Origin: Thermodesulfovibrionia bacterium
Lineage (GTDB): Bacteria; Nitrospirota; Thermodesulfovibrionia; UBA6902
DNA length: 64,000 nucleotides
Assembly: GCA_945787795.1 (NCBI GenBank)
Contig: CALZJD010000001.1
Location: 5,776 to 69,775, forward strand
Direction: 5' to 3'
The position numbers and the translations under genes are program-made. Below the pieces are notes generated by a model. The model searched no databases. It saw nothing but the letters and a program-made list of their open reading frames with translations, and was not told where the DNA came from. This document shows positions 18,126-59,615 of this stretch, in pieces. Numbering within the stretch: position 1 is the first letter of the stretch; each line of letters opens with the position of its first letter.

Positions 18126-19271
18126 TTATCTGCAAATTTCTCCATATACATCCAAAAGGGCTTTTTCAGCGTTCAGCCAGTTATACTTATTTTTACCTGC
18201 CATAAGGGCATTGTCCTTATATTGTGTAACAACAGGTTCCTCCCTTAATATCTTAAAGGCACCCAACAAACTTACCCTGGTTATTTCATTAAGACTGATC
18301 CCGCATTTTTCCTCTTTTACTATTTTTGCGATCTCTCCAAGATTGCCGGTCAGTATTGCCCTGCCTGCCGCCATTGCTTCAAAAAGTTTATTAGGCGCAC
18401 TATATTGGTTGTTACCGGTGTTATATTCCAGACCATAATAAACAACATCGGAGAGCATTGTTATCATTGGGACACGGTCAGGAGGGGTATATCCTATATA
18501 ACGTATATTTTCCTTTCCCTTGACTGCTGCTGAAATCTCATCTACCAATACCCCCTTTCCGCCTATGAGAAGAAACGCTTCTCTGTCCAGGCAAACCGCC
18601 TCAATAAGTGTCAATAACCCCCTGGAGGGGAGAAAGTAGCCAACATAGGAAATAACCAATTTATCTTCCGGAATGTCTAACTCCTTCCTTGCAGTATTAA
18701 TTTGCACATCTGAAAATCTGAAACTTTCCAATCGCTTCCAATTGCCAATGACCCTGGTCCTTTTGGCGCCTCTGCGTTTGTATTCTTCTTCCAGTATTGA
18801 GCCTACTGTTATTAATAAATCAATTCGTTTGACAAGGAATCTTTCGGCTTTTGCAATGCCCCATTTTATTAAAGGATGAACATTGTCCTTCAGCATCTCG
18901 TAATAGCTTTCATGAGCATCAAAAATTACCGGGACATTTAATTTTCTCCCGATCCAATACCCTAACGGCAATGTATTAAAATCATGGGCATGAATTACTA
19001 CCGGCTCAAGGGCAGATACCCGCTTATATGCCTCCTTCCAAAACTTCCATAAGTATCTTAATTGAGATGAACCACGTCCATAAGATGATCGAACAGAAAT
19101 CCTTTCAACCTGAATTCCATCTATGACTTCACGTTCCCTGTACTTTACTTCTCTATCCCAGCAAAATATTGTCACACTGTAACCGGCATCCACCAGAGAT
19201 ACAGCTTCATTATGTACCCTTGGATCCGGGTCAAAGCCATTGGGCAAAAGCATAAGGATCTTTTTTTTCAT
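18126..19271 (-). CDS. Glycosyltransferase family 4
   Basis: 381-aa ORF with GT-B organisation and the C-terminal motif APNKLFEAMAAGRAILTGNLGEIAK. A 4-nt overlap links it to the upstream GT-C gene. Confidence 0.85.
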   Translation of the reverse strand: MKKKILMLLPNGFDPDPRVHNEAVSLVDAGYSVTIFCWDREVKYREREVIDGIQVERISVRSSYGRGSSQLRYLWKFWKEAYKRVSALEPVVIHAHDFNTLPLGYWIGRKLNVPVIFDAHESYYEMLKDNVHPLIKWGIAKAERFLVKRIDLLITVGSILEEEYKRRGAKRTRVIGNWKRLESFRFSDVQINTARKELDIPEDKLVISYVGYFLPSRGLLTLIEAVCLDREAFLLIGGKGVLVDEISAAVKGKENIRYIGYTPPDRVPMITMLSDVVYYGLEYNTGNNQYSAPNKLFEAMAAGRAILTGNLGEIAKIVKEEKCGISLNEITRVSLLGAFKILREEPVVTQYKDNALMAGKNKYNWLNAEKALLDVYGEICR

Positions 19272-37912: not shown

Positions 37913-39696
37913 AAATCCTGCTTCTGCCGCACTTTCATTCTAACAAGCTTACGCGTTATTTCATATTTGTTTTTGACCAGGTAATTGCCGATAGCAAGAT
38001 AGTCCAGATGTCCAAGTTTAAAAGCCCTCAGAGCATCGTAGGGAGTACAGACAATCGGCTCTTCATGCATATTGAAGCTCGTGTTAATGATTACGGGCAC
38101 GCCTGTCAGGTCATCGAAAGCCTTTATTATATTATGGTAGCTTGGATTATCAGTGTTTCTCACAAGCTGGGGACGGGCTGTGTTGTCAATATGAACTACA
38201 CCGGCACAATGCTCCCTCATCCATTCTGTACAATTAAATGTAACTGTCATAAATCTTGCTGCATCTTCTGCACCCTTGAAATTCACAAAGCACTGCTCAG
38301 CCTTTTCATATAACACGGAAGGCGCAAAAGGCATGAATTCCGTTCTCACAAGGTTTTTATTAAGCCAGTCATTAACATTCGAATCAGAGGGATGGTAAAG
38401 GATTGATCGGTTGCCCAGCGCTCTGGGACCGTATTCCATTCTCCCGTTGAAGCGGGCGACTACATATCCCTCTGCCAGCAGTGATGCTATCTCTTTTTCT
38501 ATTTCTTCAAACCGCCTGTGTTTATAGCCCGCATCCTTTATGGCCGATTCAATTTCTGAATCATCAAACTCAAAGCCTAAATAAGCATCGTTAATAACAG
38601 GGGCTTGAGGGAATGCACCACTGGCGCTCATACTCTCCGCCCAGGACGCAAGCGCAGCACCTACAGCAAGACCCTCATCAGACATTCCGGGATGAATAAA
38701 TATATCTTCAACTTCTTCCAGTTCAAAAACTTCCTGGTTTATTCTTACGTTGGCAAATACTCCTCCGGCAAGGGCCAGTTTGGTCATCTTCGTTTTCTCC
38801 ATCCAGTACTTCACGTAATCTCTGCACAAATTCTCTGACAGCTTTTGAATACTGGAAGCGAGGTCATCTCTGCTGAAATTTTCACCTATCACATTTTTTA
38901 TTTTTTCTATGGCACTGTTGAAAAGCACACCGCCTGTATTTACCATTCTGCCCTTTGAACAGGAAATAAGCGAATTGATTGAATCGTAATATACAGGTTT
39001 CCCACGGGCAGCAAGACCTGTTATCTTGCCCTCATGCTTTTTTGCCTTAAAACCGCAGATCGCTGTTACGTATGCATAGTAATTACCGAGCGAATCATAA
39101 CTGTCGACTTTTGAAAGAAGTTCAAGTCTGCCGTCTTTTCCCAAATAAACATGAGAGGAGTTGCGGTCTCCGCCGCCGTCCATGGTAACAACCAGCCCGT
39201 CCTTGTAACCACTGGTAAAATAAGCAGAAGCAGCGTGAGTGTAATGGTGGTCATGGAAAGATACAGGGGCGTTTATTGAAAACTCATTACTGAGAATCTC
39301 TCTTATTCTTTTCCTTCTTTTAATGTTAATCGGTCTTCTTAGCAGATAATATAATGACTTGAGTACGGGAATACTGTTTGCCACTTTACTGAATTTCGAC
39401 GCAAAGTTAAAAAACAGATTATGTGTATCACGAATGTCCCCTCTTTCTTCAAACCAGCCTTTCCACTCTTTAATTTCCTCATTCAGTTTCATGTCAACCT
39501 GGGCTATGCCCACTGCATCGATACGGGTAGGCTCTATTCCTGCTATTTTCAACACGGCCTTTATTGAAGCGCGGGGAAATCCTCTTGCCTGTTTCAGTCT
39601 CACAAGTCTCTCCTCATTAATGGCTGCAACAATCGCTCCATCAACAATGACAGCAGCACCGCTTGTCTGACCGTCCGTAATTCCCAAAATTACCAT
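37909..39696 (-). CDS. Carbamoyltransferase (NodU/CmcH family)
   Basis: 595-aa ORF with MVILGITDGQTSGAAVIVDGAIVAAINEERLVRLK, FHDHHYTHAASAYFTSG and the C-terminal carbamoyltransferase region ...TSFNMHEEPIVCTP. Confidence 0.85.
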   Translation of the reverse strand: MVILGITDGQTSGAAVIVDGAIVAAINEERLVRLKQARGFPRASIKAVLKIAGIEPTRIDAVGIAQVDMKLNEEIKEWKGWFEERGDIRDTHNLFFNFASKFSKVANSIPVLKSLYYLLRRPINIKRRKRIREILSNEFSINAPVSFHDHHYTHAASAYFTSGYKDGLVVTMDGGGDRNSSHVYLGKDGRLELLSKVDSYDSLGNYYAYVTAICGFKAKKHEGKITGLAARGKPVYYDSINSLISCSKGRMVNTGGVLFNSAIEKIKNVIGENFSRDDLASSIQKLSENLCRDYVKYWMEKTKMTKLALAGGVFANVRINQEVFELEEVEDIFIHPGMSDEGLAVGAALASWAESMSASGAFPQAPVINDAYLGFEFDDSEIESAIKDAGYKHRRFEEIEKEIASLLAEGYVVARFNGRMEYGPRALGNRSILYHPSDSNVNDWLNKNLVRTEFMPFAPSVLYEKAEQCFVNFKGAEDAARFMTVTFNCTEWMREHCAGVVHIDNTARPQLVRNTDNPSYHNIIKAFDDLTGVPVIINTSFNMHEEPIVCTPYDALRAFKLGHLDYLAIGNYLVKNKYEITRKLVRMKVRQKQDL

Positions 39697-46501: not shown

Positions 46502-48178
46502 TTAAAGTCCTGCGGGGACATATACGGCCTTTGTCTCTTCTTTCTCCTGTCTGATTCTTGCCTCATCCCAACCAAGTTCCTTTCCCATGATTTCAGCGGA
46601 TTCATTCAGGGCATTACCTCCAGGATTTTCCGCTGAACCAAGGTCTGTCCTTCGCAAAACTACATCGGACAATTTAAGGGCCATTTCATTGCGAACGCTG
46701 TTAACAATTTCAGCCCTAATTACTTCTGATGAACCGGAAATTGTCCGTAATAATCCCTGGTCTTCATCCATGTATTTCAGAATTTTGCTGTATTCCGAAC
46801 CGTAGTTGTGTACAAGATGCGTGACCACTTTTTCATCCATTCGTGTATTATCTATTGCATTTGACAAGTAATCAGTAAACTTCCCGGTCTCCCCGCCATA
46901 AAGAGGTATTTCTTCTGTCATACATTCAGGGGATGTTCTGCACAGCTTTTTACATATCAGATCAACCGTTTTTCCTGCGACGTGTCTGTGGGTGGTATAT
47001 TTCACACCAACCACGGTTATTAAACCACCAACATTATCTTCAATCGCGTGATCGTAAATTTTGTGCTGAGTTTCGAGATTGACCATTCCTGTATCCTGCC
47101 TGACTTCGGTCATCGGAAGCAGTCCCCCATGGAAAAAGCTGATCTCCTCCCTCCTGATATCCGCTGCCGGATAGGCTTTATTAACAGTTTTCAAGAATGC
47201 CCTTATTTCCGGTTCCCTGATCCTGAAGTCATCCGGTTCTCCATAATAGGGGAGATGGATTGTGCCGATGATCGTAAAATCTCTCCACGGGAGAAAAAAC
47301 AATATCTGGCTTCCTTTATAAATTGTTCCGTCTACCCTCTTATACGTATACGGGCCCGGCAGGCCAGCTGCGTGTTTAAGAAGTAGTCTCTTTTTCACAA
47401 CTATATTCATTGCGGATGAATGTAAAAACCGTTTTACAGTATTCCCGCCGTTTTGTTTTTTCAATATATCATCTATCCAGGGACCTCCAGCATTAACTAC
47501 AACTTTAGCCTGTATGTCAAAGGTATCGTCGCTTAATGTATCCCTGGCATTGACTCCTCTTATCCAGTTTCCGTCATTTAAAAAACCTTCACACTCAACA
47601 TAATTAGCAAACTGCGCTCCAGCCCCGGAAGCTGATAGTGCATATGAAAGAACGAGACGTTCAGTATTGAAACATTGGCAGTCATACCATAAAGCACCTC
47701 CTTTCATTTCCGCATTTTCATACCCGGGCACATACTCCTTTATCTCTTTTTTAGAAATTAACCGACCTCCGGGCACTGTTTTGTCATCACTGCTTAACCT
47801 GTTTCTATCAAAACCAATAAGGTCATTGGCCTGCAACGCCACAAATAAGGCAGTCCTGCTCTTCATTTTGTAACCATACGTCGGCATTATCACGGGAAGA
47901 GGAAAAACAAGATGGGGCGCTATATTCATAAGTACTGCACGTTCATGAATGGACTGTCTCATCCTCCTGAAGTCAAAACGCTGGAGATATCTTAATCCAC
48001 CATGAATTGTCTTCAGGCTGTTTGATGATGTTGCACCTGCAAAATCACCTTTTTCAATCAAGGCAACTTTAAGCCCTCTCAGCGCTGCATCCCAAGCAAT
48101 TGAGACACCATAAACTCCACCCCCGATTATGAGGACATCATATTGCTCATTTGACAGTATATTCAGGTCTCTTATCAT
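46502..48178 (-). CDS. FAD-dependent oxidoreductase of the glycerol-3-phosphate dehydrogenase/oxidase (GlpD/GlpO) family
   Basis: 558-aa ORF. YDVLIIGGGVYGVSIAWDAALRGLKVALIEKGDFAGATSSNSLKTIHGGLRYL is the GlpD-type dinucleotide fold plus the GG(L/I)RYL motif. The C-terminal region ...LKLSDVVLRRTDLG...LGWDEARIRQE resembles the GlpD C-terminal domain. Confidence 0.8.
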   Translation of the reverse strand: MIRDLNILSNEQYDVLIIGGGVYGVSIAWDAALRGLKVALIEKGDFAGATSSNSLKTIHGGLRYLQRFDFRRMRQSIHERAVLMNIAPHLVFPLPVIMPTYGYKMKSRTALFVALQANDLIGFDRNRLSSDDKTVPGGRLISKKEIKEYVPGYENAEMKGGALWYDCQCFNTERLVLSYALSASGAGAQFANYVECEGFLNDGNWIRGVNARDTLSDDTFDIQAKVVVNAGGPWIDDILKKQNGGNTVKRFLHSSAMNIVVKKRLLLKHAAGLPGPYTYKRVDGTIYKGSQILFFLPWRDFTIIGTIHLPYYGEPDDFRIREPEIRAFLKTVNKAYPAADIRREEISFFHGGLLPMTEVRQDTGMVNLETQHKIYDHAIEDNVGGLITVVGVKYTTHRHVAGKTVDLICKKLCRTSPECMTEEIPLYGGETGKFTDYLSNAIDNTRMDEKVVTHLVHNYGSEYSKILKYMDEDQGLLRTISGSSEVIRAEIVNSVRNEMALKLSDVVLRRTDLGSAENPGGNALNESAEIMGKELGWDEARIRQEKEETKAVYVPAGL

Positions 48179-48190
48179 ATATAAGCCGGC

Positions 48191-49384
48191 TTATTGCAAA
48201 AGTTTCAACAAACAACGCATCTTACTCTCATATACCCTTCGGGAATACTTCTCATCGTACAGCTGCAGCGCATTCTTAACTGTATGTTCATGGTTTCCTT
48301 TTTCGTTTAATGCAGAAATTATGCCACGTGCCATATCTTCCGGTTCAGGTTCAACCAGATAAGCCACACCCTCATCCAGTACTTGAGTATGGGAATATAT
48401 ATTAGTGGCTACAAGGGGAATTCCACTGGCAAGCTGCTCATAGATTTTTAAGGGCGTGTTAGTCCCTGCGCTCCGCGGTGACATTATGACCGATGCAAGA
48501 CTGTTATAATATTTGGCCATTGACTGGCTCACGCGCCCCCTAAAAAAGGAATTCTGCTGAAGACCCGTCTGGTCAGCAAGCTGCCTGTATTTTTTCACCT
48601 GTGAAGGCGTCCCTCCGACTACCAGCAAAAAGGCATCGGGATATTCACTCACAACCTTTTTAAACGCTCCAATAAGAATATCTATCCCCTGATAATGTTC
48701 CAGGGTTCCTGCATACACTACAAACCGTTTCCCTTCCGGCAGGATTGGAAGTGACTCTTCAGTTGAAGCCTGACCAGAACCCATTCCTGAGTTTGTCCCT
48801 TTTGCAGCTACCTTCACCGGCTCAAAGATCGAATTCTCTATCAGAAAATGTTTTTTCTTATCATCGATGAATTTCAGGGCATATTCCTCAAGGTCCGGAC
48901 ATATGGTAATTACTGCATCCGATTTTTTAAGACAGGTATCTTCGAGTTTCTTGAACAAGCCGATAAGAAACTTTGATTTTGTGAATTGAAAGTTGCTCAA
49001 CTGCTGGGGAAGACTTGAATGCATGTCATATACCAGCTTGAATCGGAAGAGCGGTTTAAAGAAGCGGCAATAAAATATCGATTCCTCATGGGCATGAACA
49101 AAGTCATACCGCTTTTGAATAAGAAGTGCTAATGTCCAGATCACCATAAAAATATCGAGAAAGAGCTTTAGCATGGAAGGGCCTGTCTTCACATTGCCCA
49201 GAAATGCAAATCTCGGTAATCTGATTATCCTGACCCCGGGGATATCAACATCCTCTCCCTCACCATAAGTCAGGAGATCTATTTTAACACCAAGCTCCGC
49301 TGTCACAAGTGAGCGGTAGTAGACACTGAATGGTGTACCCCTTGGTGAAAAAAACGGCTGCGGTGAAATCACCAAGGCTTTCAT
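48191..49384 (-). CDS. Glycosyltransferase family 4
   Basis: 397-aa ORF with GT-B organisation and the C-terminal motif GTNTPLKIYEQLASGIPLVATNIYS. A 4-nt overlap links it to the upstream gene. Confidence 0.8.
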   Translation of the reverse strand: MKALVISPQPFFSPRGTPFSVYYRSLVTAELGVKIDLLTYGEGEDVDIPGVRIIRLPRFAFLGNVKTGPSMLKLFLDIFMVIWTLALLIQKRYDFVHAHEESIFYCRFFKPLFRFKLVYDMHSSLPQQLSNFQFTKSKFLIGLFKKLEDTCLKKSDAVITICPDLEEYALKFIDDKKKHFLIENSIFEPVKVAAKGTNSGMGSGQASTEESLPILPEGKRFVVYAGTLEHYQGIDILIGAFKKVVSEYPDAFLLVVGGTPSQVKKYRQLADQTGLQQNSFFRGRVSQSMAKYYNSLASVIMSPRSAGTNTPLKIYEQLASGIPLVATNIYSHTQVLDEGVAYLVEPEPEDMARGIISALNEKGNHEHTVKNALQLYDEKYSRRVYESKMRCLLKLLQ

Positions 49385-50214
49385 TTTCCGATAGACACTT
49401 TTTTATGTCTTCTCTTCAACATCTGCATTAGAATTTGATTTCGAATAAAAAGATGCGGCCTCTCCAGATGACCATAGGTCTCGATACGCGTTGCCGGCTC
49501 CTGGAGTAAACCTTTAATAGTCATTGCGGGATAGTCAGGAATGATGGAGTCCTTTATGAAAAAACCGAAACTGCCCGCTTTATGGCACTCATGTTCAAAA
49601 GGCAATGGATCACTACCGGGAAGTATTCTTATCCCCCTGATCTCAGCCAGACTGAAATGAGACGGGCATGACCAGAATGCCGGCCTGCCTCCATTATCCC
49701 CTAAAAACAGGCATTGTTCATCTGATGCTTTTAAATATTCTTCCAGTATCTCCCCCCTGCGCCCCAGCCACTTGCCTGCCCCCCAGGGTATAACCGGGAC
49801 AGCGTCTGCCTGGAGAGTTTTCCCTATTGTGTCCATTAGGGGATATCCGTCTTCGATAAACTTATCAGTTGCCAGGGCCAGCACCTCGAGGTTCTCGGCG
49901 GTTACAATCTGACGGCCAGCCATGATGAACAGATCACGTCCATCGTTCCGTTTTGCATATATTGAACAGTTCTCTTTTGTATGGTGAAAGGTCCAGTCTG
50001 GAATAATATTTTTATCAGTATGCCCGTTGATAGATTCCCATATTTGTTTGAACTTATTGTCATTGCTCGTTTCTGTTAAAAACAGTACAGCTGAAAACCT
50101 GCTTCCGTTATTAAGCCGTGAAGCTTCGGTGCTGAAGTTCAAAACAGCTGCGTTTAAAAATACCGGCAGGTCAAAGCAGTCATAGATATGCACGTGTGCA
50201 TCAGCTAATATCAT
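49381..50214 (-). CDS. Conserved-looking hypothetical protein, possible metal-dependent (PHP/amidohydrolase-like) hydrolase
   Basis: 277-aa ORF, tightly coupled on both sides. The N-terminal ILADAHVHIYD (HxH) and distal ILPGSDPLP weakly recall PHP-type phosphoesterases. I could not make a confident family assignment by eye. Confidence 0.45.
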   Translation of the reverse strand: MILADAHVHIYDCFDLPVFLNAAVLNFSTEASRLNNGSRFSAVLFLTETSNDNKFKQIWESINGHTDKNIIPDWTFHHTKENCSIYAKRNDGRDLFIMAGRQIVTAENLEVLALATDKFIEDGYPLMDTIGKTLQADAVPVIPWGAGKWLGRRGEILEEYLKASDEQCLFLGDNGGRPAFWSCPSHFSLAEIRGIRILPGSDPLPFEHECHKAGSFGFFIKDSIIPDYPAMTIKGLLQEPATRIETYGHLERPHLFIRNQILMQMLKRRHKKVSIGK

Positions 50215-50227
50215 ATGGTCGATTGAT

Positions 50228-51184
50228 CTATATAATCTTTTCGATCACAAATTCTTTCTTTTTCCGGCCATGGGTGAACACAATAATCTCGCCTAAAAGG
50301 CCTACACTGGCTGACTGAATGCCGAGCAACATAAAGAAAAATGACAATAACAGAGAAGGGCGATTGCCGATCGGGATCTCGTATATAAGTTTTTGAGCAA
50401 CAATAAATGTGGTTATTATAAATCCGGTTAATATAAAAAAGACGCCGATAGATATAAAAAATCGCAATGGTTTTTTGGAAAATGAAGTATTAAAGTAAAG
50501 AGTAAAAATATCAATTAATCTGTTAACATATATCGGTACATGATAAAATCCCGCCTTTGCCTGCCTGGGTTCACCATGCTCTCTGTAGTGTTCACACATA
50601 ATTTCTTTACATGTAAACCCTTTTCGGGCTGCATATACTGGGAAAAATCTGTACATGTTTCCATATAACTCCGTCTCCTCAATTACCTCTCTCCTAAATA
50701 CACTGACATTACAGCTCAGGTCAAACATCTTAATTCCGGTAATCCATCTTACTATTGCATTGAACAGATTGGATTGCATTTTATAAAAAGAAGGATCAAA
50801 CCTGTTTAGCCTGCAAGGACTGATTATGTCGGATTCATCACTCACGGCATCAAGTATCTGGTTAAAAGACTTAACTGTGAGCTGCTGGTAAGCACCACTG
50901 GCAAAAATATATTTACCACCGATCTCTTTTAAAACTGACTTAAGGCATATTGCATAAGACGTCTTTTTGCTCATCTCGAAGACTTTGGTTTTGTGATTAG
51001 GCATATAATTATTTTTATACAGTTTTTTTAAAAATCCGCCGGTCCCATTCGCAATAATGACCACTTCAAACGTATCCGACCTTGAGCTGAACACATTAAT
51101 TATTGTCTTTAAATAGCGTGGGAAATCTTCGTTCTTCTTATCCAGCAAAAAAACAACTGAATATTCTACTGATACTTGTTTCAT
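50228..51184 (-). CDS. GtrB/ArnC-like GT2 paralog with degenerate catalytic motifs (probable pseudo-enzyme)
   Basis: 318-aa ORF, collinear with the neighbour 51181-52134 (for example YGNMYRFFPVYAARKG vs YGEMHRFLPALASLTG) and with two C-terminal TM helices. FEVVIIANGTGG replaces YEVIFVDDGSTD, and IFASGAYQQ replaces ITLDGDMQN. An ATGA overlap links it to the upstream gene. Confidence 0.7.
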   Translation of the reverse strand: MKQVSVEYSVVFLLDKKNEDFPRYLKTIINVFSSRSDTFEVVIIANGTGGFLKKLYKNNYMPNHKTKVFEMSKKTSYAICLKSVLKEIGGKYIFASGAYQQLTVKSFNQILDAVSDESDIISPCRLNRFDPSFYKMQSNLFNAIVRWITGIKMFDLSCNVSVFRREVIEETELYGNMYRFFPVYAARKGFTCKEIMCEHYREHGEPRQAKAGFYHVPIYVNRLIDIFTLYFNTSFSKKPLRFFISIGVFFILTGFIITTFIVAQKLIYEIPIGNRPSLLLSFFFMLLGIQSASVGLLGEIIVFTHGRKKKEFVIEKII

Positions 51185-52134
51185 TCTGCGTCGCCTTTCA
51201 TCGTTATAGTCTTCTTTGTAACTTCAGGCATTTTAGTGTGAGACAGGTCGCTCGTGCCAACCACAAGTTCTCCCAGAACACCGAGAGCAATCAGATGTGA
51301 TACGGCCATTCCGTTTAATGCCGTGACAACCATGAAAAAAACTGATTTCCCCGAGGTCCAGTCAAGCATGACAGAAAGACCGCTAAGGATCCCAAAACAT
51401 ACTGTCAGTAAAATAAACGGCAGTGCGCAAATAACAAATCCTTTCAATGGTGTTGAAGAAAAACCGATTATCAGACTAATGCCAATAATATCACTAAAAA
51501 CCTTAAAGATACGGTTAAAGCCGTATTTCGAATCACCGTATTTTCTTGGATGATGTTTAACCGGTATTTCTGTCACTCTGGCCCCTGTTAAACTTGCTAG
51601 TGCAGGTAAAAATCTATGCATCTCTCCATATGCATTCAACGGTTTTATGCATTCAGATCGGTAAGCCTTCAATGTACAGCCATAATCATTCAACTTCACT
51701 CCGGTAGTCAATGAGATAATTGCATTAGCAATCCTGGAAGGAAATACTCGTGAAAAATTATCTTTTCTGTTTTTGCGCCAACCGCTGACAATATCGTTAC
51801 CCTCATCCAATTTTTCTAAAAGGGACGGGATATCAGACGGGTCATTCTGCATGTCTCCATCCAATGTAATGATTATATTACCCGTTGCATAATCAAATCC
51901 GGCAACCATAGCGCTTGTTTGACCATAATTACGACGTAATTTGATACTTCTTAATTTTGGATTTGATTTTTTTAATTTTTCAATGACCTTCCAGGTTATG
52001 TCTGTTGATCCATCATCTACAAAAATAACTTCATAAGCAAGAAAAAGTTTTTGGAGTTCAGTATCAATTTTGTAAAAAAGCGCCTCTACATTCTGCCATT
52101 CATTATATAATGGAACCACAACAGACAAATCCAT
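51181..52134 (-). CDS. Polyprenyl-phosphate glycosyltransferase (GT2, GtrB/ArnC/DPM1-like)
   Basis: 317-aa ORF with LSVVVPLYNEWQNV, YEVIFVDDGSTD, GQTSAMVAGFDYATGNIIITLDGDMQNDP and DIVSGWRKNRKD, plus two C-terminal TM helices. Confidence 0.9.
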   Translation of the reverse strand: MDLSVVVPLYNEWQNVEALFYKIDTELQKLFLAYEVIFVDDGSTDITWKVIEKLKKSNPKLRSIKLRRNYGQTSAMVAGFDYATGNIIITLDGDMQNDPSDIPSLLEKLDEGNDIVSGWRKNRKDNFSRVFPSRIANAIISLTTGVKLNDYGCTLKAYRSECIKPLNAYGEMHRFLPALASLTGARVTEIPVKHHPRKYGDSKYGFNRIFKVFSDIIGISLIIGFSSTPLKGFVICALPFILLTVCFGILSGLSVMLDWTSGKSVFFMVVTALNGMAVSHLIALGVLGELVVGTSDLSHTKMPEVTKKTITMKGDAE

Positions 52135-52147
52135 GATATTAATATCC

Positions 52148-52384
52148 TTAAATCTTCTTTTTGATATCGTCCAGTTTGTGTTTGTAGCTTGTATAACAGG
52201 TTTTATTGCAGCAGAACTCAGAGCACATCTTTAAACTCCGATTAGACATGCATTCCCCTGATTGTTTAGTTCTTCCGAGCATTAGAGGTTTCTCATTCTG
52301 GCGCTTCTGGTCAGAAATGATAACTTGATCTATCTGTAACTCTTTAGAAACAGTTTCCATTATATTAAGAGCAACTATTTGCAC
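52148..52384 (-). CDS. Small Cys-rich ORF of doubtful coding status
   Basis: 78 codons with a GTG start. GGAG lies only 2 nt upstream, and the internal ATG at 52360 has no SD. The C-terminal half is CMSNRSLKMCSEFCCNKTCYTSY. The ORF ends 13 nt before the GT2 start and would be the first ORF of the operon. Confidence 0.25.
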   Translation of the reverse strand: MQIVALNIMETVSKELQIDQVIISDQKRQNEKPLMLGRTKQSGECMSNRSLKMCSEFCCNKTCYTSYKHKLDDIKKKI

Positions 52385-52527
52385 TGCTCCGCCCTTTCAG
52401 TCACATATGACTTCCGTTTGGCTGAAAAAATGTTATGCATACATCGATTTAAACTAAATAAGTTTAGTAGATTCAGATATCGAGATATTTCACTAATTAC
52501 ATTGATGAATTAAGTAGTCTGATTAAA

Positions 52528-52543
52528 TGTAGGATTTCTTACA
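52528..52543 (-). promoter_or_regulatory. Operator-like inverted repeat TGTAGGA-TT-TCTTACA (site C)
   Basis: TGTAGGATTTCTTACA lies in the 271-bp spacer upstream of the 52384-35246 operon. It shares the 9-mer TGTAGGATT with sites at 62532 and 63589. Confidence 0.35.
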
Positions 52544-52655
52544 ATTATTGAACCTATAGTTATTAATATTATTCCAACTCATAAAAGTCACTCTTTAGAT
52601 AATGTCAATCAACCTGCTCAACATACCTTACTCATGATTCACTAACACTATCTTC

Positions 52656-53738
52656 TTATTCTAACTCCTCTTTTTTTTGACCTTTATTGTCTTGCTCTTT
52701 TTTAACTTGTATTTTTTTGAATTTTGAAACCCGGGCTGAAAGGTCATCCAACATGTCATCGTCCACAATTTTCACCATTACTCTATATACCATTTTTTCT
52801 ACAAGCCTTTCGAACACCTCTAATATCTTTTCGCTTTCGCTGAGTAATTCTTCCGAAATTCTGCTATGCTCCAGGTCATCTGTTAACGTGTTATGATTTG
52901 TAGCTAAACCACGATTTGAATCATTCCAGTAGTCATATGCTTTCAGGTCTTTTGAGACTTCTAAAATAATATTAAACCCTACTTCTTTCTCACCCTTAGT
53001 AAACGCACATAGCAATGCAAAATCAGATAAGATATTAATAAGTCTGGGAATTCCCCTGCTGAAATCATAAATAATCTGGAGCATATCATCTGTGAGCTTA
53101 ATTGCATCAGCATTCCCTGCAACCGTTAAGCGATACTTTATATATTCAGAAGTTTCATCAATAGATAAAGGTGTGATGTGATAGTTAATGTTAATACGCT
53201 GTTTTAATTGTAGCAATTCAGGAAGCATGAGCATGTTCTTCAATTCCGGTTGTCCTACGAGAATAATCTGGATCAGTTTTGATTTGTCTGTTTCAAGGTT
53301 TGAGAGAAGCCTTATCTCTTCAAGGAGATCGGACGAAAGATTTTGTGCTTCATCAATTAAAAGTATCGGCTGATTTCCGCTGACATACTGATCTATCAAA
53401 AAATCATTCAATTCGCTAAATAATATTGTTTTGTTCTTCCCTTCAACTATTAAGCCAAAATCTTTGTTAATCATGGAAATGAGTTGTTCAGATGAGACTT
53501 TCGTATAATTAATTCGTGACAGTTTTATTGATCCGTTAAGGTTTTTAATGAGATTTCTGACAATAGTTGTTTTTCCTGAACCAACCTCACCAGAAAGCAA
53601 AATAAAGCCGATCTTTGCCTTTATTCCATAGTCCAGATAAGATATGGCCTTTTTATGTGTTGTGCTTGGAAAAAGAAAATCCGGATTAGGCACTAACTCA
53701 AAGGGTTTGCATTTGAATGAGAAATGATTTTCGTACAT
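52656..53738 (-). CDS. ExeA-like AAA ATPase, PEP-CTERM-locus type
   Basis: MYENHFSFKCKPFELVPNPDFLFPSTTHKKAISYLDYGI...ILLSGEVGSGKTT (Walker A) and ILLIDEAQNL (Walker B). I prefer the start at 53738, where AGGTGAT lies 5 nt upstream. The track ORF starts at the GTG at 53747. Confidence 0.85.
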   Translation of the reverse strand: MYENHFSFKCKPFELVPNPDFLFPSTTHKKAISYLDYGIKAKIGFILLSGEVGSGKTTIVRNLIKNLNGSIKLSRINYTKVSSEQLISMINKDFGLIVEGKNKTILFSELNDFLIDQYVSGNQPILLIDEAQNLSSDLLEEIRLLSNLETDKSKLIQIILVGQPELKNMLMLPELLQLKQRININYHITPLSIDETSEYIKYRLTVAGNADAIKLTDDMLQIIYDFSRGIPRLINILSDFALLCAFTKGEKEVGFNIILEVSKDLKAYDYWNDSNRGLATNHNTLTDDLEHSRISEELLSESEKILEVFERLVEKMVYRVMVKIVDDDMLDDLSARVSKFKKIQVKKEQDNKGQKKEELE

Positions 53739-53743
53739 TTGTA

Positions 53744-55018
53744 TCACCTAAACATCACTGTGGCCTGCAGCCACGTAATATTATTTATATAATCATCACT
53801 CACAATATCTGATTTTCTTACGTCATACCTGTATGCAGCGCCTGTTGTAATATGCCGTCCTAAAATGTAATTTATGCTGCTTCCTGCTCCATATCGATGA
53901 ACTTTTCCGTCTTCATTTCCACCAGAAAACTCCTGCTTTTCCCACTGTCCGTTTAGTGATACATCTATTCTTTTTGATACGGAACGTGATATATCAATAG
54001 CAACACCAGCAATTTCATCTTCTCTGTCAGAGTCCAGATATTCATCAATAGTATAGTAGGAATTTACGGTCAATTTAATTGTTTTTCCCGTTTCAACATT
54101 AATATCAACTCTATGACTTTTAAATAACCCTGACGTAGGTGAATCATTAAAATGAATACCGTAGTTGAATCCTACCGATGTATTTTCTGTTATCTTAAAA
54201 ATATTGTCGGTCCCAATATTCCAAATAAATTCTCGAATGTTATCAACATCTTGATAGTTAAACCATGCAACTCCCAGTGAACCATTGATCGTGACAGACG
54301 GTGTAATTCGATAATCCATTTTAGCAGAAGCCTCATGCCTGTCATACTTCGCTTCTGCAACATTACTACCTTCACCATTCAGATCAGGACGATAAGTATA
54401 ATATTCGTAATGTACTGCTCCATTTATTTTCGGTGAAAACTTTTTATCTAATGTTAAAAATGCAGAATGAGTATCAGAGTTGACTAAAGAAGGATCCCTG
54501 TACCATATGTTTGTGTAGCTATAACCAATTGTTGTAGAAATAGTATCCGTGAAAGGCAATATCATATTAGGAGATGCCGTAAATACATTCCTGTCTGTCA
54601 AATTCAGAAATAAATTTTCGGGACTTGTAGGGTTTCTTATATCTACCGGAACACGTTCATACGTGTCCGAGATATTAATATAAAATCGACTTGATGGTTT
54701 AATCATAGTTTGAAAATTCAGACGTTGAGCCTCGTTCAGGTCCGTATCATTGAGATTAGTGTTTTCACTGTAGAATGTGAAATTCAGTCCATAATCAAGA
54801 TCGAAATTAATGGTTCTATACGGAGAATACTTAAGTACAATTTTCGGATTAATAGTAGTTATAAAATCATCTGTTCTGCCAGTCTCGGTTAAAAATATAT
54901 TGTCATTATATTCTTCCTTTACACTTATACTGGGATTTAATGAAAATTCCGCAAACGATGGAGCGCAAATGAATATTATCATTACCGGTAAGAGTCCAAA
55001 ATAAATCACCTTTCTCAT
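53744..55018 (-). CDS. Outer-membrane beta-barrel protein, PEP-CTERM-locus associated
   Basis: 424-aa ORF with the signal peptide MRKVIYFGLLPVMIIFICAPSFA. It has an alternating-hydrophobicity, Tyr/Asn/Thr-rich strand pattern throughout and sits between the kinase and ATPase genes, as in XrtA loci. Confidence 0.7.
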   Translation of the reverse strand: MRKVIYFGLLPVMIIFICAPSFAEFSLNPSISVKEEYNDNIFLTETGRTDDFITTINPKIVLKYSPYRTINFDLDYGLNFTFYSENTNLNDTDLNEAQRLNFQTMIKPSSRFYINISDTYERVPVDIRNPTSPENLFLNLTDRNVFTASPNMILPFTDTISTTIGYSYTNIWYRDPSLVNSDTHSAFLTLDKKFSPKINGAVHYEYYTYRPDLNGEGSNVAEAKYDRHEASAKMDYRITPSVTINGSLGVAWFNYQDVDNIREFIWNIGTDNIFKITENTSVGFNYGIHFNDSPTSGLFKSHRVDINVETGKTIKLTVNSYYTIDEYLDSDREDEIAGVAIDISRSVSKRIDVSLNGQWEKQEFSGGNEDGKVHRYGAGSSINYILGRHITTGAAYRYDVRKSDIVSDDYINNITWLQATVMFR

Positions 55019-55827
55019 TCTTTCGCATCTCGATTATATCCTGTATATTTGTAACCATAACGATAATAAGGTGTATGAAAGCTACCCGCGCTTGCATCAT
55101 TATATACAACACCCAATATATTCGAAGCCTTAATCATGTGCAAGGCCTCTTCAATTGTTTTTTTCTGCGCATGTGCCTCCCTGATAACGAAAACAATTCC
55201 ATCTACATAAGAGGCTATTGTAATTCCCTCTGCAAAAGGCAGGATTGGAGGCGTGTCAATAATAATATATCTGTCCATATATTTTTGCTTAAACTCTTTA
55301 ATAAGTGATTGCATTTTCTGAGAAGAGAGTAATTCTACGGGATTCTCCACTTGATTGCCTGCCGGAATAAAGACAAGATTGCCAATGCCTGTTTTTATTA
55401 TAATATCTGAAATATCAATATCCCGGGATAAATACTCAGAAAGCCCATATTTATATTCGATTCCGAGATATTTGTGTAAAGTAGGCTTCCTTAGATCTGC
55501 ATCCACCAAAATGACCGAATGGTCAATGTCATGGGCAATTGATACTGCTAGATTTACTGATGTGTTAGATTTACCTTCATTATCAATAGCACTGGTAATC
55601 ATGATAGTATTATGGAAATCTGTCTTTGTTTCCCGGATTAATATTGACTTAAATCTCCTGTACTCCTCAGCAATAGCGGAATGAGGATCGGTTATTGTTA
55701 CCAAACAGGGATTGACAATTTCTTTTCGTTCAATCCTGTTGATGATTTTCAGTTTTTTTCTGCCATCTTCAGTAGTATTTGCCATTAATTTACCTGCTAT
55801 ATCCAGTGCCTTCTCAATTTCGCTCAT
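55015..55827 (-). CDS. BY-type protein tyrosine kinase (stand-alone cytoplasmic domain)
   Basis: 270-aa ORF with Walker A ITSAIDNEGKSNTS, Walker A' VILVDADLRKP, Walker B YIIIDTPP and the C-terminal Tyr cluster PYYRYGYKYTGY. Confidence 0.9.
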   Translation of the reverse strand: MSEIEKALDIAGKLMANTTEDGRKKLKIINRIERKEIVNPCLVTITDPHSAIAEEYRRFKSILIRETKTDFHNTIMITSAIDNEGKSNTSVNLAVSIAHDIDHSVILVDADLRKPTLHKYLGIEYKYGLSEYLSRDIDISDIIIKTGIGNLVFIPAGNQVENPVELLSSQKMQSLIKEFKQKYMDRYIIIDTPPILPFAEGITIASYVDGIVFVIREAHAQKKTIEEALHMIKASNILGVVYNDASAGSFHTPYYRYGYKYTGYNRDAKE

Positions 55828-55844
55828 GCTATCTCCTTACAGAT

Positions 55845-57404
55845 TTATAGATAGTGATTTACAAAGCTGCTATGTATGAATTCTTCAACATATGTAAGAC
55901 CTAAATATTCCATTACAAGGACCCCCAAAATGCACAACATATACACTCCTGCAAAACTATAAAGAAGGATATCTTTTTTCTTTCTTTTTATAATCGTCTC
56001 TGAGCTTTGTATCTTGGGTATTATTGCAAGAACCGGTAATCCGAATGTCTTAAGGACATCAGAAGTTTTAACAGAATTATCTATATAATCAAGCAGGAAA
56101 ATGACCCCAAAAGATACTATGAAACCAAATATAATGCCGGTCAAAATCATCCTTACTCTGCTTGGAGTGATTGGTATTGATGGCATAATAGCAGGCTCAA
56201 TAATTCTGAAAGTAGTAGCCTTATCTTCTATCTCCATTTGTTTTGATACCTCAGACTGGCCGAGTCTTGCCAGTAATTGTTGATATACACTTCGGAAAGA
56301 ATCTCTTTCTTTTTCCAGATCAGCCAGTTTTTTTCTGTTCTCAGGTATAACCCTCAATTCCTTTTTTTTATTCCTGATCAACGTGTTCAAATGATCGTTC
56401 TTTGCATTAAATGCGATAATTTCTGTTTCTACTTCAGCAAGTCTTTGTTTTAATCTTTGATACACAGGATTTGCGGCGCTGATTTCTGTATCTCTCTCGT
56501 TGTTAACATAATCTTCGGGACTATTGTTGTTCTGGTTTTTTAAAACTTCTATTTCGGCTTTCAGTTTAATAATATCCGGATAGTTTTCCGTATATCTGAC
56601 GAGCAATTGTTTGATTCTGTTTTCAAGAGATTCTATCGTTTTCTTAATTTCGCTTGTACTGTACATGGCAACAGTAAAGGGGTCTTCATTGCTTAACTGT
56701 GCTTCGATGCTTTTCTTTCTTGCAATCAATTCTTTCTTCTGTATCTCTATTGTACTAATCTCTTCCAAATGATTCTTTATCTCATTAATAATAGAGCCTT
56801 CATCCGTTGCTATATAGATCCCCTGTTCCTGCCTGAATTTAATTACCTCATCTTCTCCTTTGTCCATCTTTCCTTTAAAAAAAGCGACTTGCTTTTCCAG
56901 GAACTTAGTGGCATTATATGCCTCCTCCCTCTTTGCAAAAATGTTTTTCTCAAGGTATTCATTGACAAGATTATTAATATAATTCTTGGCAAGCGCTGGA
57001 TCGCGATGTATAAAGGACACGGTGATAAGACTGTTATTCCTTATTTTTATATCCGTCTTATTCTGAAACGAATTAATCATTCTTTCTAAGTCTTCACTAT
57101 TATTTGCATGTATATCCAAATCAAGGTTACGTAGCACATTCAGGACAAGACTTCTACCAAGCATAGTATCTCTAAGCACTCTGATTCTCTCATCCATTGA
57201 AGGCGTAATTGCAATACCTTCAACAAGTCGATGTATGACATTTCGCTCAATAAATATAGTGCTCTTTGCTTCATATTCCTTAGGCATAAAATAGCTATAG
57301 CAAGTAATTATGGACATAATAAAAAGAGACAAAGGGACAAAGAGATATCTCTTCTTAATAATCAGTTTCAGATATCTGAGTATTTCCGAATATGGCTGTT
57401 CCAT
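55845..57404 (-). CDS. Polysaccharide chain-length determinant (Wzz/PCP family, PEP-CTERM-locus type)
   Basis: I prefer the start at 57404 (MEQPYSEILRYLKLI...), which is preceded by GAAGGAGAGAAA. The protein has an N-terminal TM segment, a long coiled-coil periplasmic region and a C-terminal TM segment. The track ORF start at 57446 overlaps the upstream gene. Confidence 0.85.
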   Translation of the reverse strand: MEQPYSEILRYLKLIIKKRYLFVPLSLFIMSIITCYSYFMPKEYEAKSTIFIERNVIHRLVEGIAITPSMDERIRVLRDTMLGRSLVLNVLRNLDLDIHANNSEDLERMINSFQNKTDIKIRNNSLITVSFIHRDPALAKNYINNLVNEYLEKNIFAKREEAYNATKFLEKQVAFFKGKMDKGEDEVIKFRQEQGIYIATDEGSIINEIKNHLEEISTIEIQKKELIARKKSIEAQLSNEDPFTVAMYSTSEIKKTIESLENRIKQLLVRYTENYPDIIKLKAEIEVLKNQNNNSPEDYVNNERDTEISAANPVYQRLKQRLAEVETEIIAFNAKNDHLNTLIRNKKKELRVIPENRKKLADLEKERDSFRSVYQQLLARLGQSEVSKQMEIEDKATTFRIIEPAIMPSIPITPSRVRMILTGIIFGFIVSFGVIFLLDYIDNSVKTSDVLKTFGLPVLAIIPKIQSSETIIKRKKKDILLYSFAGVYMLCILGVLVMEYLGLTYVEEFIHSSFVNHYL

Positions 57405-57423
57405 TTTCTCTCCTTCATATTCT

Positions 57424-58236
57424 TTAAAATAAGCTTTCATTGACAATTACAATATCATTGGGCATCATCATTACATTCTCGCTTAAATTACCCTTCATGA
57501 GATTTTTTGCCTTTACCGATATTTCTATCCTTTCCGCATCACCATTTTTTCTAAAAATCTTTACACTATTTTTGTTTGCAAATTCGGTAAATCCACCAAC
57601 AGCAAGAATAACATCCAGAATTGTGTGACCCTCACTGTACTTAATAGTAGTCGGATTATTTACAGCACCAAGTATAGTTATCCGTTTATCAAAGTTGTCA
57701 GGGATAAACAGGGTGTCATTCGGATTCAAAGTAATATCCTGACTGTAATTCCCCTTTTCAAAGAGGGAAGAAAAATCAGTCATTATCTTCTTTTTATCTC
57801 TCAATAAATATGCGTTTTTCAGATCAGCATCTTGAAAGGGTCCAATCTGTGCAAGCAACTCCAGCAGTGTTGTTTGTCTCGTAAGTGTTATGACTCCTGT
57901 TTTCACTCCCGTGCCTATAAGAAATATTCTAGAATTTGTCATGTTTGTAACTATCACAGTGACAATTGGTGTTTTAACTATTGTCTTCATTTCTCGTTCT
58001 AGCAATTTTTTCAACTCCAATGGGGTCAATCCTGATGCCCTAATCTCGCCCATTGCAGGAATTGATATCTTGCCGTCAGGTCTGACTGTACTTGATAAGC
58101 TCAGCTCCGGGATTCCCCAAACAGAAACATTAAGAGAGTCGCCTTCTCCAATAACATAATCTCCTGAAAAGACATATAGTGGAATCAAAACGAATACAAT
58201 CATCAAACTGAATATAGTTTTAACAAACTTCATCAT
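57424..58236 (-). CDS. Polysaccharide export protein (Wza-like; Poly_export plus SLBB domains)
   Basis: 270-aa ORF with a signal peptide, YVIGEGDSLNVSVWGIPELS (Poly_export motif) and SLBB-like repeats. An ATGA overlap links it to the upstream transferase gene. Confidence 0.85.
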   Translation of the reverse strand: MMKFVKTIFSLMIVFVLIPLYVFSGDYVIGEGDSLNVSVWGIPELSLSSTVRPDGKISIPAMGEIRASGLTPLELKKLLEREMKTIVKTPIVTVIVTNMTNSRIFLIGTGVKTGVITLTRQTTLLELLAQIGPFQDADLKNAYLLRDKKKIMTDFSSLFEKGNYSQDITLNPNDTLFIPDNFDKRITILGAVNNPTTIKYSEGHTILDVILAVGGFTEFANKNSVKIFRKNGDAERIEISVKAKNLMKGNLSENVMMMPNDIVIVNESLF

Positions 58237-59615
58237 CTTCCTCCTCTACCGAATAAAATAACTTTCATTGTATCCATCATAATCAGAAAGTCAAGAAAGA
58301 CCGATTGATATTTCATATAGTAGAGATCATATTTCAACTTTTCGACAGCATCTTTCACTGAATCGCCATACTCATGTCTTACCTGAGCCCACCCCGTAAC
58401 TCCCGGCTTAATGCAGTGTCTCTCTGAATAATATGGTATTTGTTTTTTTAGAGTTTCAACGAAAAATGGCCGCTCAGGCCTCGGACCTATAAAACTCATG
58501 TCTCCTCGGATGACATTGAATAACTGGGGGATTTCATCAAGTCGAGTTTTTCTTAAAAAGTTTCCGAGTCTCGTTATCCTACAGTCTCCAGCCTGTGACC
58601 ATACGGGACCGGTATCCTTTTCAGCACAATCAATCATTGTTCTGAATTTATAGACGGTAAATATTTTCTCGCCTTCTCCTATACGTTTCTGTTTAAATAA
58701 AACTGGCCCTTTGGAATCCAGTTTTATGAGAACAGGGATGAAAAAAATAAAAGGCACTGTAATTGCAATACCAAATGCAGCAAACAAGACGTCACATATA
58801 CGTTTTATAAAACTTCGCATAATGGTTATCCTGAATCCATCGGAAAAGATCAGATGGCTTGGATTCATGTTTTCGACAAGCAGTTTTCCAGTCATCTGTT
58901 CATAAAAGGAAGGACCATCAACTATATCTATCCCCTTTAGTTTGCAGTTGAGTATTTCCCTAACAGGAAGATTTCCCCGCCTTTCAGTAAGGGATACAAT
59001 GATCTTCTGAACTTTTTTCTTTAGAGCAACAGCACATAATCTCTCTTCGCTTCCAATTACATTATGTTCAGGGACGTTCACAGGTTCACTCATACATTTT
59101 ATGTATCCTGACAATGCAAAGCCATTGTTGTTGCCGTCAATTATCTTCCCCATGATCATGGCAACCGGTCCTGTACCAAGTATAAGTACGTTTCTACTGC
59201 CAACCGGTAACTCCTGAAAAAAGTCATAACCAATGTGCCATATTGCCTGGAATAAAATTGATATGCACATTGCATAAAGCAATACCCCTCTTCCAAGGAA
59301 TAAAGACTGAACAAAGTAATAAAAAGCAGCAAGTGCAATTGCAGTAATAAATCTGGATAATACTATTTTCGATAGTATCTCCTTTCTGCTAACCTTTTTA
59401 TTACCACTGTATAGTTCTACAAAAAAACAGATAAGCACAATAAAAAACGCAAATGCAATTACCTTTGGCAGAAAGGGATAATATAAATACATATCTTCTA
59501 ATTCGTATTTATAACTGAAATAAAATCTCAAATAAATGCCGGCATAAGCTGAAACTATAGAAATTATGAAATCTCCTATCATTAACATAATATATCTTGG
59601 TAATAAGAATTTCAT
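58233..59615 (-). CDS. Polyprenyl glycosylphosphotransferase (EpsB/WbaP-type initiating sugar transferase)
   Basis: 460-aa ORF with N-terminal TM helices and a central Rossmann-like region. The C-terminal bacterial sugar transferase domain reads RICDVLFAAFGIAITVPFIFFIPVLIKLDSKGPVLFKQKRIG...YKFRTM...RLDEIPQLFNVIRGDMSFIGPRP. Confidence 0.9.
   Translation of the reverse strand: MKFLLPRYIMLMIGDFIISIVSAYAGIYLRFYFSYKYELEDMYLYYPFLPKVIAFAFFIVLICFFVELYSGNKKVSRKEILSKIVLSRFITAIALAAFYYFVQSLFLGRGVLLYAMCISILFQAIWHIGYDFFQELPVGSRNVLILGTGPVAMIMGKIIDGNNNGFALSGYIKCMSEPVNVPEHNVIGSEERLCAVALKKKVQKIIVSLTERRGNLPVREILNCKLKGIDIVDGPSFYEQMTGKLLVENMNPSHLIFSDGFRITIMRSFIKRICDVLFAAFGIAITVPFIFFIPVLIKLDSKGPVLFKQKRIGEGEKIFTVYKFRTMIDCAEKDTGPVWSQAGDCRITRLGNFLRKTRLDEIPQLFNVIRGDMSFIGPRPERPFFVETLKKQIPYYSERHCIKPGVTGWAQVRHEYGDSVKDAVEKLKYDLYYMKYQSVFLDFLIMMDTMKVILFGRGGR

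Follow-up and report, generated by a model that had tools for sequence, protein, structure and literature searches.

Why should a bacterium retain, directly behind an intact polyprenyl-phosphate glycosyltransferase, a second and full-length copy that has lost the site for its sugar donor? The question is raised by two adjacent genes in a 64,000-nucleotide stretch of DNA from a Thermodesulfovibrionia bacterium (Nitrospirota; GenBank assembly GCA_945787795.1, contig CALZJD010000001.1, positions 5,776 to 69,775), hereafter the window. The upstream gene, A, encodes the intact copy and the downstream gene, B, its paralogue (Table 1). A sequence-only reading of the window had taken B for a retained pseudo-glycosyltransferase acting with A in an obligate heteromer, as a scaffold, substrate presenter or flippase-like partner. 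We find that A and B are a conserved two-gene module, a pairing that points to an undescribed two-part form of polyprenyl-phosphate glycosyltransferase.

Two paralogues of one fold

A and B align collinearly with 26% identity over 220 amino acids (BLASTP, E=7e-21), far above chance. Both lie on the minus strand, and the ATGA through which they are joined can be read directly from the sequence, so that the sequence-only reading was right to describe them as adjacent, collinear paralogues; the C-terminal topology of two transmembrane (TM) helices that it assigned to both also agrees with AlphaFold2 (AF2) models of each chain. Those models comprise a glycosyltransferase A (GT-A) domain, a juxtamembrane helix and two C-terminal TM helices (residues 229-256 and 263-294 in A, 239-268 and 276-306 in B), and both proteins thus have the architecture of ArnC, GtrB and DPMS, in which a C-terminal segment follows the second helix. 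Foldseek returned these same three enzymes as top matches, with E-values down to 3e-24 for A (predicted local distance difference test score, pLDDT, 79) and down to 1e-17 for B (pLDDT 82.8; TM-scores of about 0.65-0.72).

Sequence families place the two proteins at different distances from the same enzymes. The Pfam family of glycosyltransferase family 2 (GT2; PF00535) matches A at 4e-32 and is the sole Pfam match of B, at 0.044 and under the gathering threshold, while the best NCBIfam match of A and B alike is ArnC, at 204 and 75 bits respectively. Neither reaches the ArnC equivalog cut-off (PRK10714, 529 bits); both are therefore relatives of ArnC and not orthologues, and the sugar cannot be equated with 4-deoxy-4-formamido-L-arabinose (Ara4FN). 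Against ArnC in the PDB, A aligns over residues 3-291 (E=8e-57, about 36-42% identity). Judged by its sequence, A is probably a complete ArnC/GtrB-type enzyme, predicted to load a sugar, probably an amino sugar, onto undecaprenyl phosphate (Und-P) at the cytoplasmic face of the membrane.

Donor and acceptor sites

What B has lost and kept was followed in a family alignment of 146 sequences, comprising 70 orthologues of A and 76 of B, onto which residue roles were transferred from studies of ArnC (PMC12690121) and GtrB (PMC12698845). In ArnC, D100 is the proposed catalytic base, D102 and Q104 are metal ligands, and D47, D48, N77, R205, S210 and K211 bind the nucleotide (PMC12690121); the Und-P headgroup is bound by R128 and R131, and in GtrB by R122 and R125 (PMC12690121, PMC12698845). 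All functional residues of ArnC are kept in 68-70 of the 70 A orthologues, with the nucleotide-binding set, taken as a feature of the class, present in 69-70 (Table 2).

All motifs quoted in the sequence-only reading are present, VDDGSTD and LDGDMQN in A, IANGTGG and SGAYQQ in B, and its claim that B has lost both acidic signatures of GT-A enzymes stands. Its pairing of LDGDMQN with ASGAYQQ was right as to the loss of acid and wrong as to register. LDGDMQN corresponds to SGAYQQL, such that the DxDxQ motif of A (D92-G-D94-M-Q96) faces G97-A98-Y99-Q100-Q101 in B, D92 being replaced by glycine and D94 by tyrosine, and Q96 being kept. Nor has the motif merely shifted, since the alignment holds no conserved acidic column between G90 and D119 of B and neither DxD aspartate occurs in any B orthologue. 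Further blocks shared by the two chains remain, DIVSGWRKNRKD in A against DIISPCRLNRFD in B and YGEMHRFLPALA against YGNMYRFFPVYA. Relaxation of the donor site in B reaches well beyond the DxD motif, to the N-terminal PxYNE, to NYGQT, to the R205 equivalent and to the serine/lysine loop, and with these residues absent B cannot bind a metal-nucleotide-sugar donor in the canonical way. The phosphate-pocket arginines are present in both A and B, and to judge from them B very probably still binds the polyprenyl-phosphate headgroup.

Table 2. Equivalents of ArnC functional residues in 70 A and 76 B orthologues
ArnC residue	A orthologues	B orthologues
D100	Asp 70/70	Asp 0/76 (P/G/A/T)
D102	Asp 70/70	Asp 0/76, Tyr 73/76
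Q104	Gln 70/70	Gln 74/76
D47	Asp 68/70	lost (A/L/I)
D48	Asp 70/70	D 45, N 29, E 2 of 76
N77	Asn 69/70	variable
R205	Arg 70/70	Arg 4/76
S210, K211	70/70	lost
R128 (GtrB R122)	R120 70/70	R125 76/76
R131 (GtrB R125)	R123 70/70	R128 73/76
R of YGxMxRF (conserved in A and B)	70/70	75/76

Retention of B under purifying selection

A protein that has shed its catalytic residues might simply be a duplicate in decay, a functionless pseudogene in the making, and the loss of both acidic signatures together with a Pfam GT2 score under threshold would suit such a fate. The wider family of B speaks otherwise. At least 300 homologues exist at 46-74% identity, all of about 308-322 amino acids and named 'hypothetical protein' or 'glycosyltransferase' in the sequence sources. 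Scanning one genome per species yielded 468 matching stretches, the best 80 of which underlie the locus counts given throughout (L-numbers denote loci) and come from Nitrospirota, Desulfobacterota, Planctomycetota, Gammaproteobacteria, Acidobacteriota, Binatia and Melioribacteraceae, the nearest relatives being metagenome-assembled genomes of Nitrospirota and Desulfobacterota. In an exhaustive profile search (P-numbers denote proteins), at least 80 of the best 150 representatives of 50%-identity clusters were of the DxD-less B type. Intact, full-length open reading frames (ORFs) thus occur in hundreds of species and at least six phyla. Across 21 closely related locus pairs the ratio of nonsynonymous to synonymous substitution (dN/dS) is 0.05-0.28 for B and indistinguishable from that for A; the replacement motif xxxYxQ is itself conserved (Y99 in 73 and Q101 in 74 of the 76 orthologues); and the membrane half of B is more conserved than that of its active partner. 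Taken together, selection, family size, motif and membrane half exclude decay, to which we assign a next to negligible probability, and uphold the claim that B is a retained pseudo-glycosyltransferase. Being paralogous to an active enzyme, deprived of the catalytic residues and maintained by purifying selection, B is a pseudoenzyme.

Linkage of A and B

B is also scarcely ever found by itself. Apart from L049, all examined loci that include 900 bp or more ahead of B have an orthologue of A, 40-72% identical to it, directly upstream on the same strand, which accords with the constant company of degenerate and intact copies on which the sequence-only reading had proposed to be checked. In L049 (5516-7918) two insertion-sequence-type transposase genes lie directly upstream of an N-terminally truncated B, and no A is present. 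The median gap between the stop of A and the start of B is -2 bp, with overlap in 24 of 47 loci and a separation within 60 bp in 16 more. Starting from the other side, all four homologues of A that were picked regardless of B have a weak-GT2 gene of 308-321 amino acids directly downstream. Within a locus the two proteins are 19-33% identical in all loci, from which it follows that the duplication is ancient and predates the spread of the pair, and their pairwise distance matrices correlate (r=0.83), indicating inheritance or transfer as a unit. Among the 80 loci no neighbour beyond A and B is universal; GT4 and other clusters are frequent. One locus, L035, carries an extra truncated copy of A (6173-6655, 54% identity over 106 amino acids) upstream of an intact pair.

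The weight that the sequence-only reading laid on translational coupling is less well founded. Start/stop overlaps of 4 bp join five other gene pairs in the same operon (49381-49384, 53744-53747, 55015-55018, 58233-58236 and 59612-59615), making tight coupling a property of the whole locus rather than of A and B only, and among relatives the gap between the two varies.

Complementary constraint on the two chains

If the two proteins have been kept together for so long, what has each been kept for? Separate alignments of the A and B families show regional mean conservation running in opposite directions, a trend seen in a second comparison as well. The GT-A core scores 0.68 in A and 0.46 in B, whereas TM1 scores 0.43 and 0.52, the loop 0.27 and 0.51, TM2 0.45 and 0.66, and the C-terminal tail 0.27 and 0.56; over the region of B residues 217-318 the values are 0.51-0.66 in B against 0.27-0.57 in A. 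Positions conserved in A only are donor-site residues. Those conserved in B only (Y219, R222, F231, K238, L240, R241, F242, G247, G254, R275, G288, L296, G298, F303 and Y312) belong, with few exceptions, to the juxtamembrane and TM helices, the periplasmic loop or the C-terminal hairpin. An independent comparison with Escherichia coli ArnC divides the same way, its catalytic N-domain scoring 155 bits against A-type and 74.5 bits against B-type proteins, and its membrane half 15 bits against A-type (20 of 70 without a match) and 34.5 bits against B-type (0 of 77 without a match). Alignments of A to ArnC, GtrB and PgfS, made with hidden Markov models and phmmer, end at residue 291, just past the GE motif, and those of B reach the final residue of ArnC, so that the C-terminal hairpin of that enzyme is matched by B only. 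In the AF2 models the tail of A (residues 297-317) has a pLDDT below 50, is predicted to be disordered and forms no strand, and B ends in a short strand. These are the parts from which the known tetramers are built: the tetramers of ArnC and GtrB are held by a bundle of eight TM helices, with the C-terminal strand or domain of each chain resting against the neighbouring protomer (PMC12690121, PMC12698845). That the oligomer-building elements should be best preserved in the catalytically dead copy we read as subfunctionalisation.

The same alignments bear on whether B might be an enzyme of a different kind, performing the next step on the lipid-linked product of A (the addition or rearrangement of a group on Und-P-sugar, for instance) by non-canonical, metal-independent chemistry that uses the lipid-phosphate pocket and new residues. 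Metal-independent GT-A enzymes exist, the replacement residues Y99 and Q101 are conserved, polar residues D119, D155, R179, E194, Y219, R222 and D225 are kept across phyla, the equivalent of ArnC D48 is D or N in 74 of 76 orthologues, and several neighbouring genes (the deacetylase, FemAB-like and paired DAO and short-chain dehydrogenase/reductase, SDR, genes described below) plausibly act on lipid-linked sugars. Yet the whole donor site is relaxed, not the DxD motif alone, and in B the GT-A core is the least conserved part and the TM helices and hairpin the most, which would be odd for chemistry carried out in a cytoplasmic domain. We consider this explanation unlikely.

Fusions of B and the company it keeps

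Domain fusions offer an independent view of the partners of B. In several Planctomycetota B is fused C-terminally to a FemAB-like GNAT (Acetyltransf_6) domain (L036, L045, L050 and L053; proteins P0261, P0271 and P0285), and in P0339 (L085 5001-6986) it is fused to a flippase-like LPG_synthase_TM domain, behind an A gene with which it overlaps by 4 bp. In L085 the pair is preceded by genes for a deacetylase with DUF3473, an Acetyltransf_6 protein and a DegT aminotransferase, an Arn-like set. Around the pair in related loci are found LPG_synthase_TM genes (11 loci), FemAB-like GNAT genes (26 of 80), DegT aminotransferases and deacetylases. The fusions tie B physically to enzymes of the steps that follow Und-P-sugar synthesis, and the presence of a dedicated flippase-like domain, fused to B or beside it, suggests a docking or hand-off component rather than a flippase, so that the flippase-like role once proposed for B is weakened.

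This bears in turn on the idea that B serves the same pathway without touching A, as a homotetramer of its own that carries, scrambles or flips Und-P or Und-P-sugar, or as a regulator. B itself keeps the canonical tetramerisation elements, its periplasmic loop has a conserved arginine (R275, 93%), its TM helices are glycine-rich, and most loci have no separate flippase gene within 8 kb. On the other hand each chain has only two TM helices, the dedicated LPG_synthase_TM domain already stands fused or adjacent, and neither the strict order of A then B nor the relaxed constraint on the membrane part of A is explained. We rate it as decidedly improbable.

Several other candidate fusions and related arrangements were met in the searches. 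An apparent A-B fusion of 620 amino acids in L071 (3445-5307) is an assembly frameshift, in which the C-terminus of A (GEL...) and its stop abut the start of B in another frame. Long proteins with a C-terminal match to the B profile (P0341, P0348, P0352, P0355, P0358 and P0371) were rejected: they belong to another subfamily, are active DxD enzymes and have low-complexity extensions at the N-terminus. P0253 (633 amino acids; fragment P0286) holds two polyprenyl-phosphate glycosyltransferase copies of another subfamily in one chain, both with DxD and the second without the WKKxR acceptor motif, and represents a different division of labour between paralogues.

A proposed division of labour

Complementary constraint, the retained Und-P pocket and the domain fusions favour a role for B as scaffold or substrate handler. 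The best reading, and one we hold to be somewhat probable, is that A and B form a hetero-oligomer in which B is the membrane, lipid-handling or docking subunit; from the evidence above we infer a physical heteromer and its stoichiometry, lipid binding by B and a hand-off role. A would take its sugar, probably an amino sugar, from a nucleotide-linked donor and attach it to undecaprenyl phosphate at the cytoplasmic face, and B would co-assemble with it into one ArnC-like hetero-oligomer, A supplying catalysis and B the membrane and oligomerisation scaffold. B may also handle the lipid, by delivering Und-P and/or holding the Und-P-sugar product, with better supply of acceptor and/or onward passage of product as the result, and could dock the enzymes that act downstream, namely the FemAB-like acyltransferase, the deacetylase, the flippase-like protein and the GT-C glycosyltransferase.

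Several considerations tell against a hetero-oligomer. That the genes are adjacent and inherited together proves that they serve one pathway but not that their products form one complex, and contact between A and B is deduced from genomic linkage and complementary constraint. Among the sequences seen there is no natural A-B fusion, the sole candidate being the L071 frameshift. A has kept an entire acceptor pocket and both of its TM helices and may be fully competent alone, as GacI is without GacJ. The conserved polar residues around the cavity of B (Y99, Q101, D119, D155, R179, Y219, R222 and D225) could form an unrecognised active site rather than a site of passive binding. Finally, the co-occurrence of B with A, approached from A, was sampled only four times, at 65-70% identity to A.

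A bolder version of the hetero-oligomer would make B the organising subunit of a membrane 'assembly line', in which B, together with A, holds Und-P-sugar in its phosphate pocket, presents it to tailoring enzymes and passes the product to the flippase-like protein and the GT-C. Tailoring, with the sugar still attached to the lipid, would fall to an ArnD-like deacetylase, to a FemAB-like transferase of aminoacyl or acyl groups and, by analogy with DprE1/DprE2, to a GlpD-like FAD oxidase with an SDR. We advance it tentatively, as a speculation that is rather doubtful in its entirety.

Genomic setting in the window

Seven TIGR marker genes above cut-off assign the operon of the window to an XrtA/PEP-CTERM exopolysaccharide locus (Table 1). 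Between the XrtA-associated ATPase gene and A lies a gap of 520 bp (52134-52656), the largest in this part of the operon; a scan around the pair for promoters and terminators gave promoter-like sites not above chance and no terminator. The XrtA locus of Rubrivivax lacks the A-B pair.

Directly after B comes a 277-amino-acid ORF with no match in Pfam, NCBIfam or the PDB, whose homologues occur in 7 of the 80 related loci. In L081 the pair is followed by the same downstream set of unknown ORF, GT4 and GlpD-like genes, the ORF without Pfam match in that place having 269 amino acids and being alike by size and position only. GlpD-like homologues accompany the pair in 16 of the 80 loci, usually next to an SDR 'epimerase' gene, and were located in L081 (8853-10565) and L082 (9137-10819). 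By analogy and inference only, the association of GlpD-like and SDR genes recalls the oxidation and then reduction of the C2 hydroxyl of a polyprenyl-phosphate sugar by DprE1/DprE2. Beyond the GlpD-like gene the window continues with two AsnB-like amidotransferases, a methyltransferase and an SDR. Some 30 kb downstream of the pair, in the same strand run, the PMT_2 glycosyltransferase is a plausible candidate for the periplasmic consumer of the Und-P-sugar made by A, and PMT_2 genes abut the pair in 12 of the 80 loci, as well as in L071 and L083. A NodU-like carbamoyltransferase gene lies in the window (37909-39696, minus strand) and a Carbam_trans gene near the pair in L085 (9696-11525), which hints at carbamoylated sugars in these polysaccharides.

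Table 1. Positions of the gene pair, its motifs and neighbouring features (window coordinates unless a locus is named; Arabic residue numbers refer to the named protein)
Feature	Position	Strand	Remarks
Gene A, upstream intact copy	51181..52134	minus	317 aa; ArnC/GtrB-type polyprenyl-phosphate glycosyltransferase
Gene B, downstream DxD-less paralogue of A	50228..51184	minus	318 aa; member of large conserved family
ATGA overlap, B ATG on A TGA	51181-51184	minus	read directly from sequence
A residues 39-45 VDDGSTD, nucleotide-binding DDG motif (ArnC D47/D48)	52000-52020	minus	D40 68/70, D41 70/70 orthologues
A residues 91-97 LDGDMQN, DxDxQ (ArnC D100/D102/Q104)	51844-51864	minus	D, D, Q 70/70 orthologues
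A residues 229-317, TM1, TM2, poorly conserved C-terminal tail	51184-51450	minus	conservation 0.27-0.45
B residues 44-50 IANGTGG, in place of DDG motif	51035-51055	minus	sequence
B residues 96-102 SGAYQQL, in place of DxDxQ (G97, Y99, Q101)	50879-50899	minus	sequence
B residues 125-128 R-L-N-R, predicted Und-P phosphate arginines (ArnC R128/R131; GtrB R122/R125)	50801-50812	minus	
B residues 217-318, juxtamembrane helix, TM1, periplasmic loop, TM2, C-terminal beta-hairpin	50231-50536	minus	most conserved part of B
XrtA/PEP-CTERM exopolysaccharide core genes, upstream	52656..59615	minus	TIGR03015, 03016, 03018, 03007, 03027, 03013, all above NCBIfam cut-offs
277-aa ORF directly after B, starting MILADAHVH (HxH)	49381-50214	minus	4-bp overlap with next GT4 gene
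GT4	48191-49384	minus	Pfam, NCBIfam
GlpD-like FAD oxidoreductase	46502-48178	minus	DAO + DAO_C; 259 bits to glycerol-3-phosphate dehydrogenase, cut-off 360
XrtA deacetylase TIGR03006	24776-25624		above cut-off
PMT_2/ArnT-like GT-C	19268-21292	minus	674 aa, about 12 TM; Pfam PMT_2 2e-12
B-FemAB fusion	L036 456-2708		
B-FemAB fusion	L045 7830-9932		
B-FemAB fusion	L050 and L053 7815-10145		

Implications

The accepted picture of polyprenyl-phosphate glycosyltransferases such as ArnC, GtrB, DPMS and GacI is of homo-oligomers in which every chain is the same and active, and ArnC is a target for reversing polymyxin resistance. If A and B do assemble, the enzyme family would also include hetero-oligomers, one subunit catalysing and the other dealing with membrane or lipid, and the pair would allow the parts played by the TM bundle, the swapped C-terminal hairpin and the Und-P pocket to be studied apart from catalysis in a natural setting. 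Hundreds of genes at present named 'glycosyltransferase family 2' or 'hypothetical protein' probably encode proteins other than transferases, and within XrtA/PEP-CTERM exopolysaccharide loci the pair is the mark of an Arn-like side branch. Should the assembly line exist, B would be the first pseudoenzyme in bacterial polyprenyl-phosphate glycobiology to be dedicated to substrate channelling, and PEP-CTERM/exosortase polysaccharide systems would gain a defined accessory pathway.

Comparison with known systems

No Pfam or NCBIfam family sets B apart from GT2, and the literature searched holds no account of a paralogue without donor site paired with a polyprenyl-phosphate glycosyltransferase, nor of the pair in PEP-CTERM loci, in keeping with the view of the sequence-only reading that such a pair is not a described feature of these enzymes. 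A known enzyme class and a known theme of pseudoenzyme partners meet here in a combination not described for bacterial lipid-carrier glycosyltransferases. With ArnC, GtrB and DPMS (PDB 8VXH, 9HWJ, 5EKP, 9NYC and 5MLZ) A and B share the GT2 family and a GT-A domain with two juxtamembrane and two TM helices, and none of the catalytic, nucleotide or Und-P residues is missing from A. Those enzymes, however, are homotetramers of one active chain, and here two paralogues are obligately paired, one of them without a donor site.

A division into catalytic and supporting parts is familiar from the dolichol/polyprenol-P-mannose synthases, eukaryotic DPM1-DPM2-DPM3 and mycobacterial Ppm1 (D1/D2), in which a catalytic GT-A part is joined by a separate part that anchors it in the membrane and stabilises it. 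Their anchoring subunits, unlike B, are not paralogues of the catalytic subunit. In plants, GAUT1:GAUT7 and IRX9/IRX14 show an inactive or dispensable paralogue kept as anchor or scaffold for an active glycosyltransferase; they differ from A and B in being eukaryotic Golgi type-II enzymes of other glycosyltransferase families that act on polysaccharide substrates and have no operon linkage.

The closest functional analogy is offered by GacI-GacJ of Streptococcus pyogenes and PpgS-Rv3632 of Mycobacterium tuberculosis, where a non-catalytic membrane gene directly downstream of a polyprenyl-phosphate (Pren-P) glycosyltransferase yields a complex with better use of Und-P. GacJ binds the Pren-P glycosyltransferase GacI, reduces the Km of that enzyme for Und-P about 17-fold (from 18.7 to 1.1 uM) and increases Vmax (bioRxiv 10.1101/180810). 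GacJ and Rv3632 are 113-amino-acid DUF2304 proteins of three TM helices, unrelated to the enzyme they assist, whereas B is a full-length paralogue with a GT-A domain; at 318 amino acids it is not a small three-TM protein, and Pfam finds no DUF2304 in it.

The Arn pathway, lastly, combines an aminotransferase (ArnB), ArnC, a deformylase (ArnD), a flippase (ArnE/F) and a GT-C (ArnT), and related A-B loci repeatedly combine DegT, polysaccharide-deacetylase-family, flippase-like and PMT_2 GT-C genes, with ArnC as the best structural match of A. That pathway serves the modification of lipid A, whereas the A-B module belongs to XrtA/PEP-CTERM exopolysaccharide loci and brings with it an extra dead paralogue, FemAB-like and GlpD-like genes and a variable gene content.

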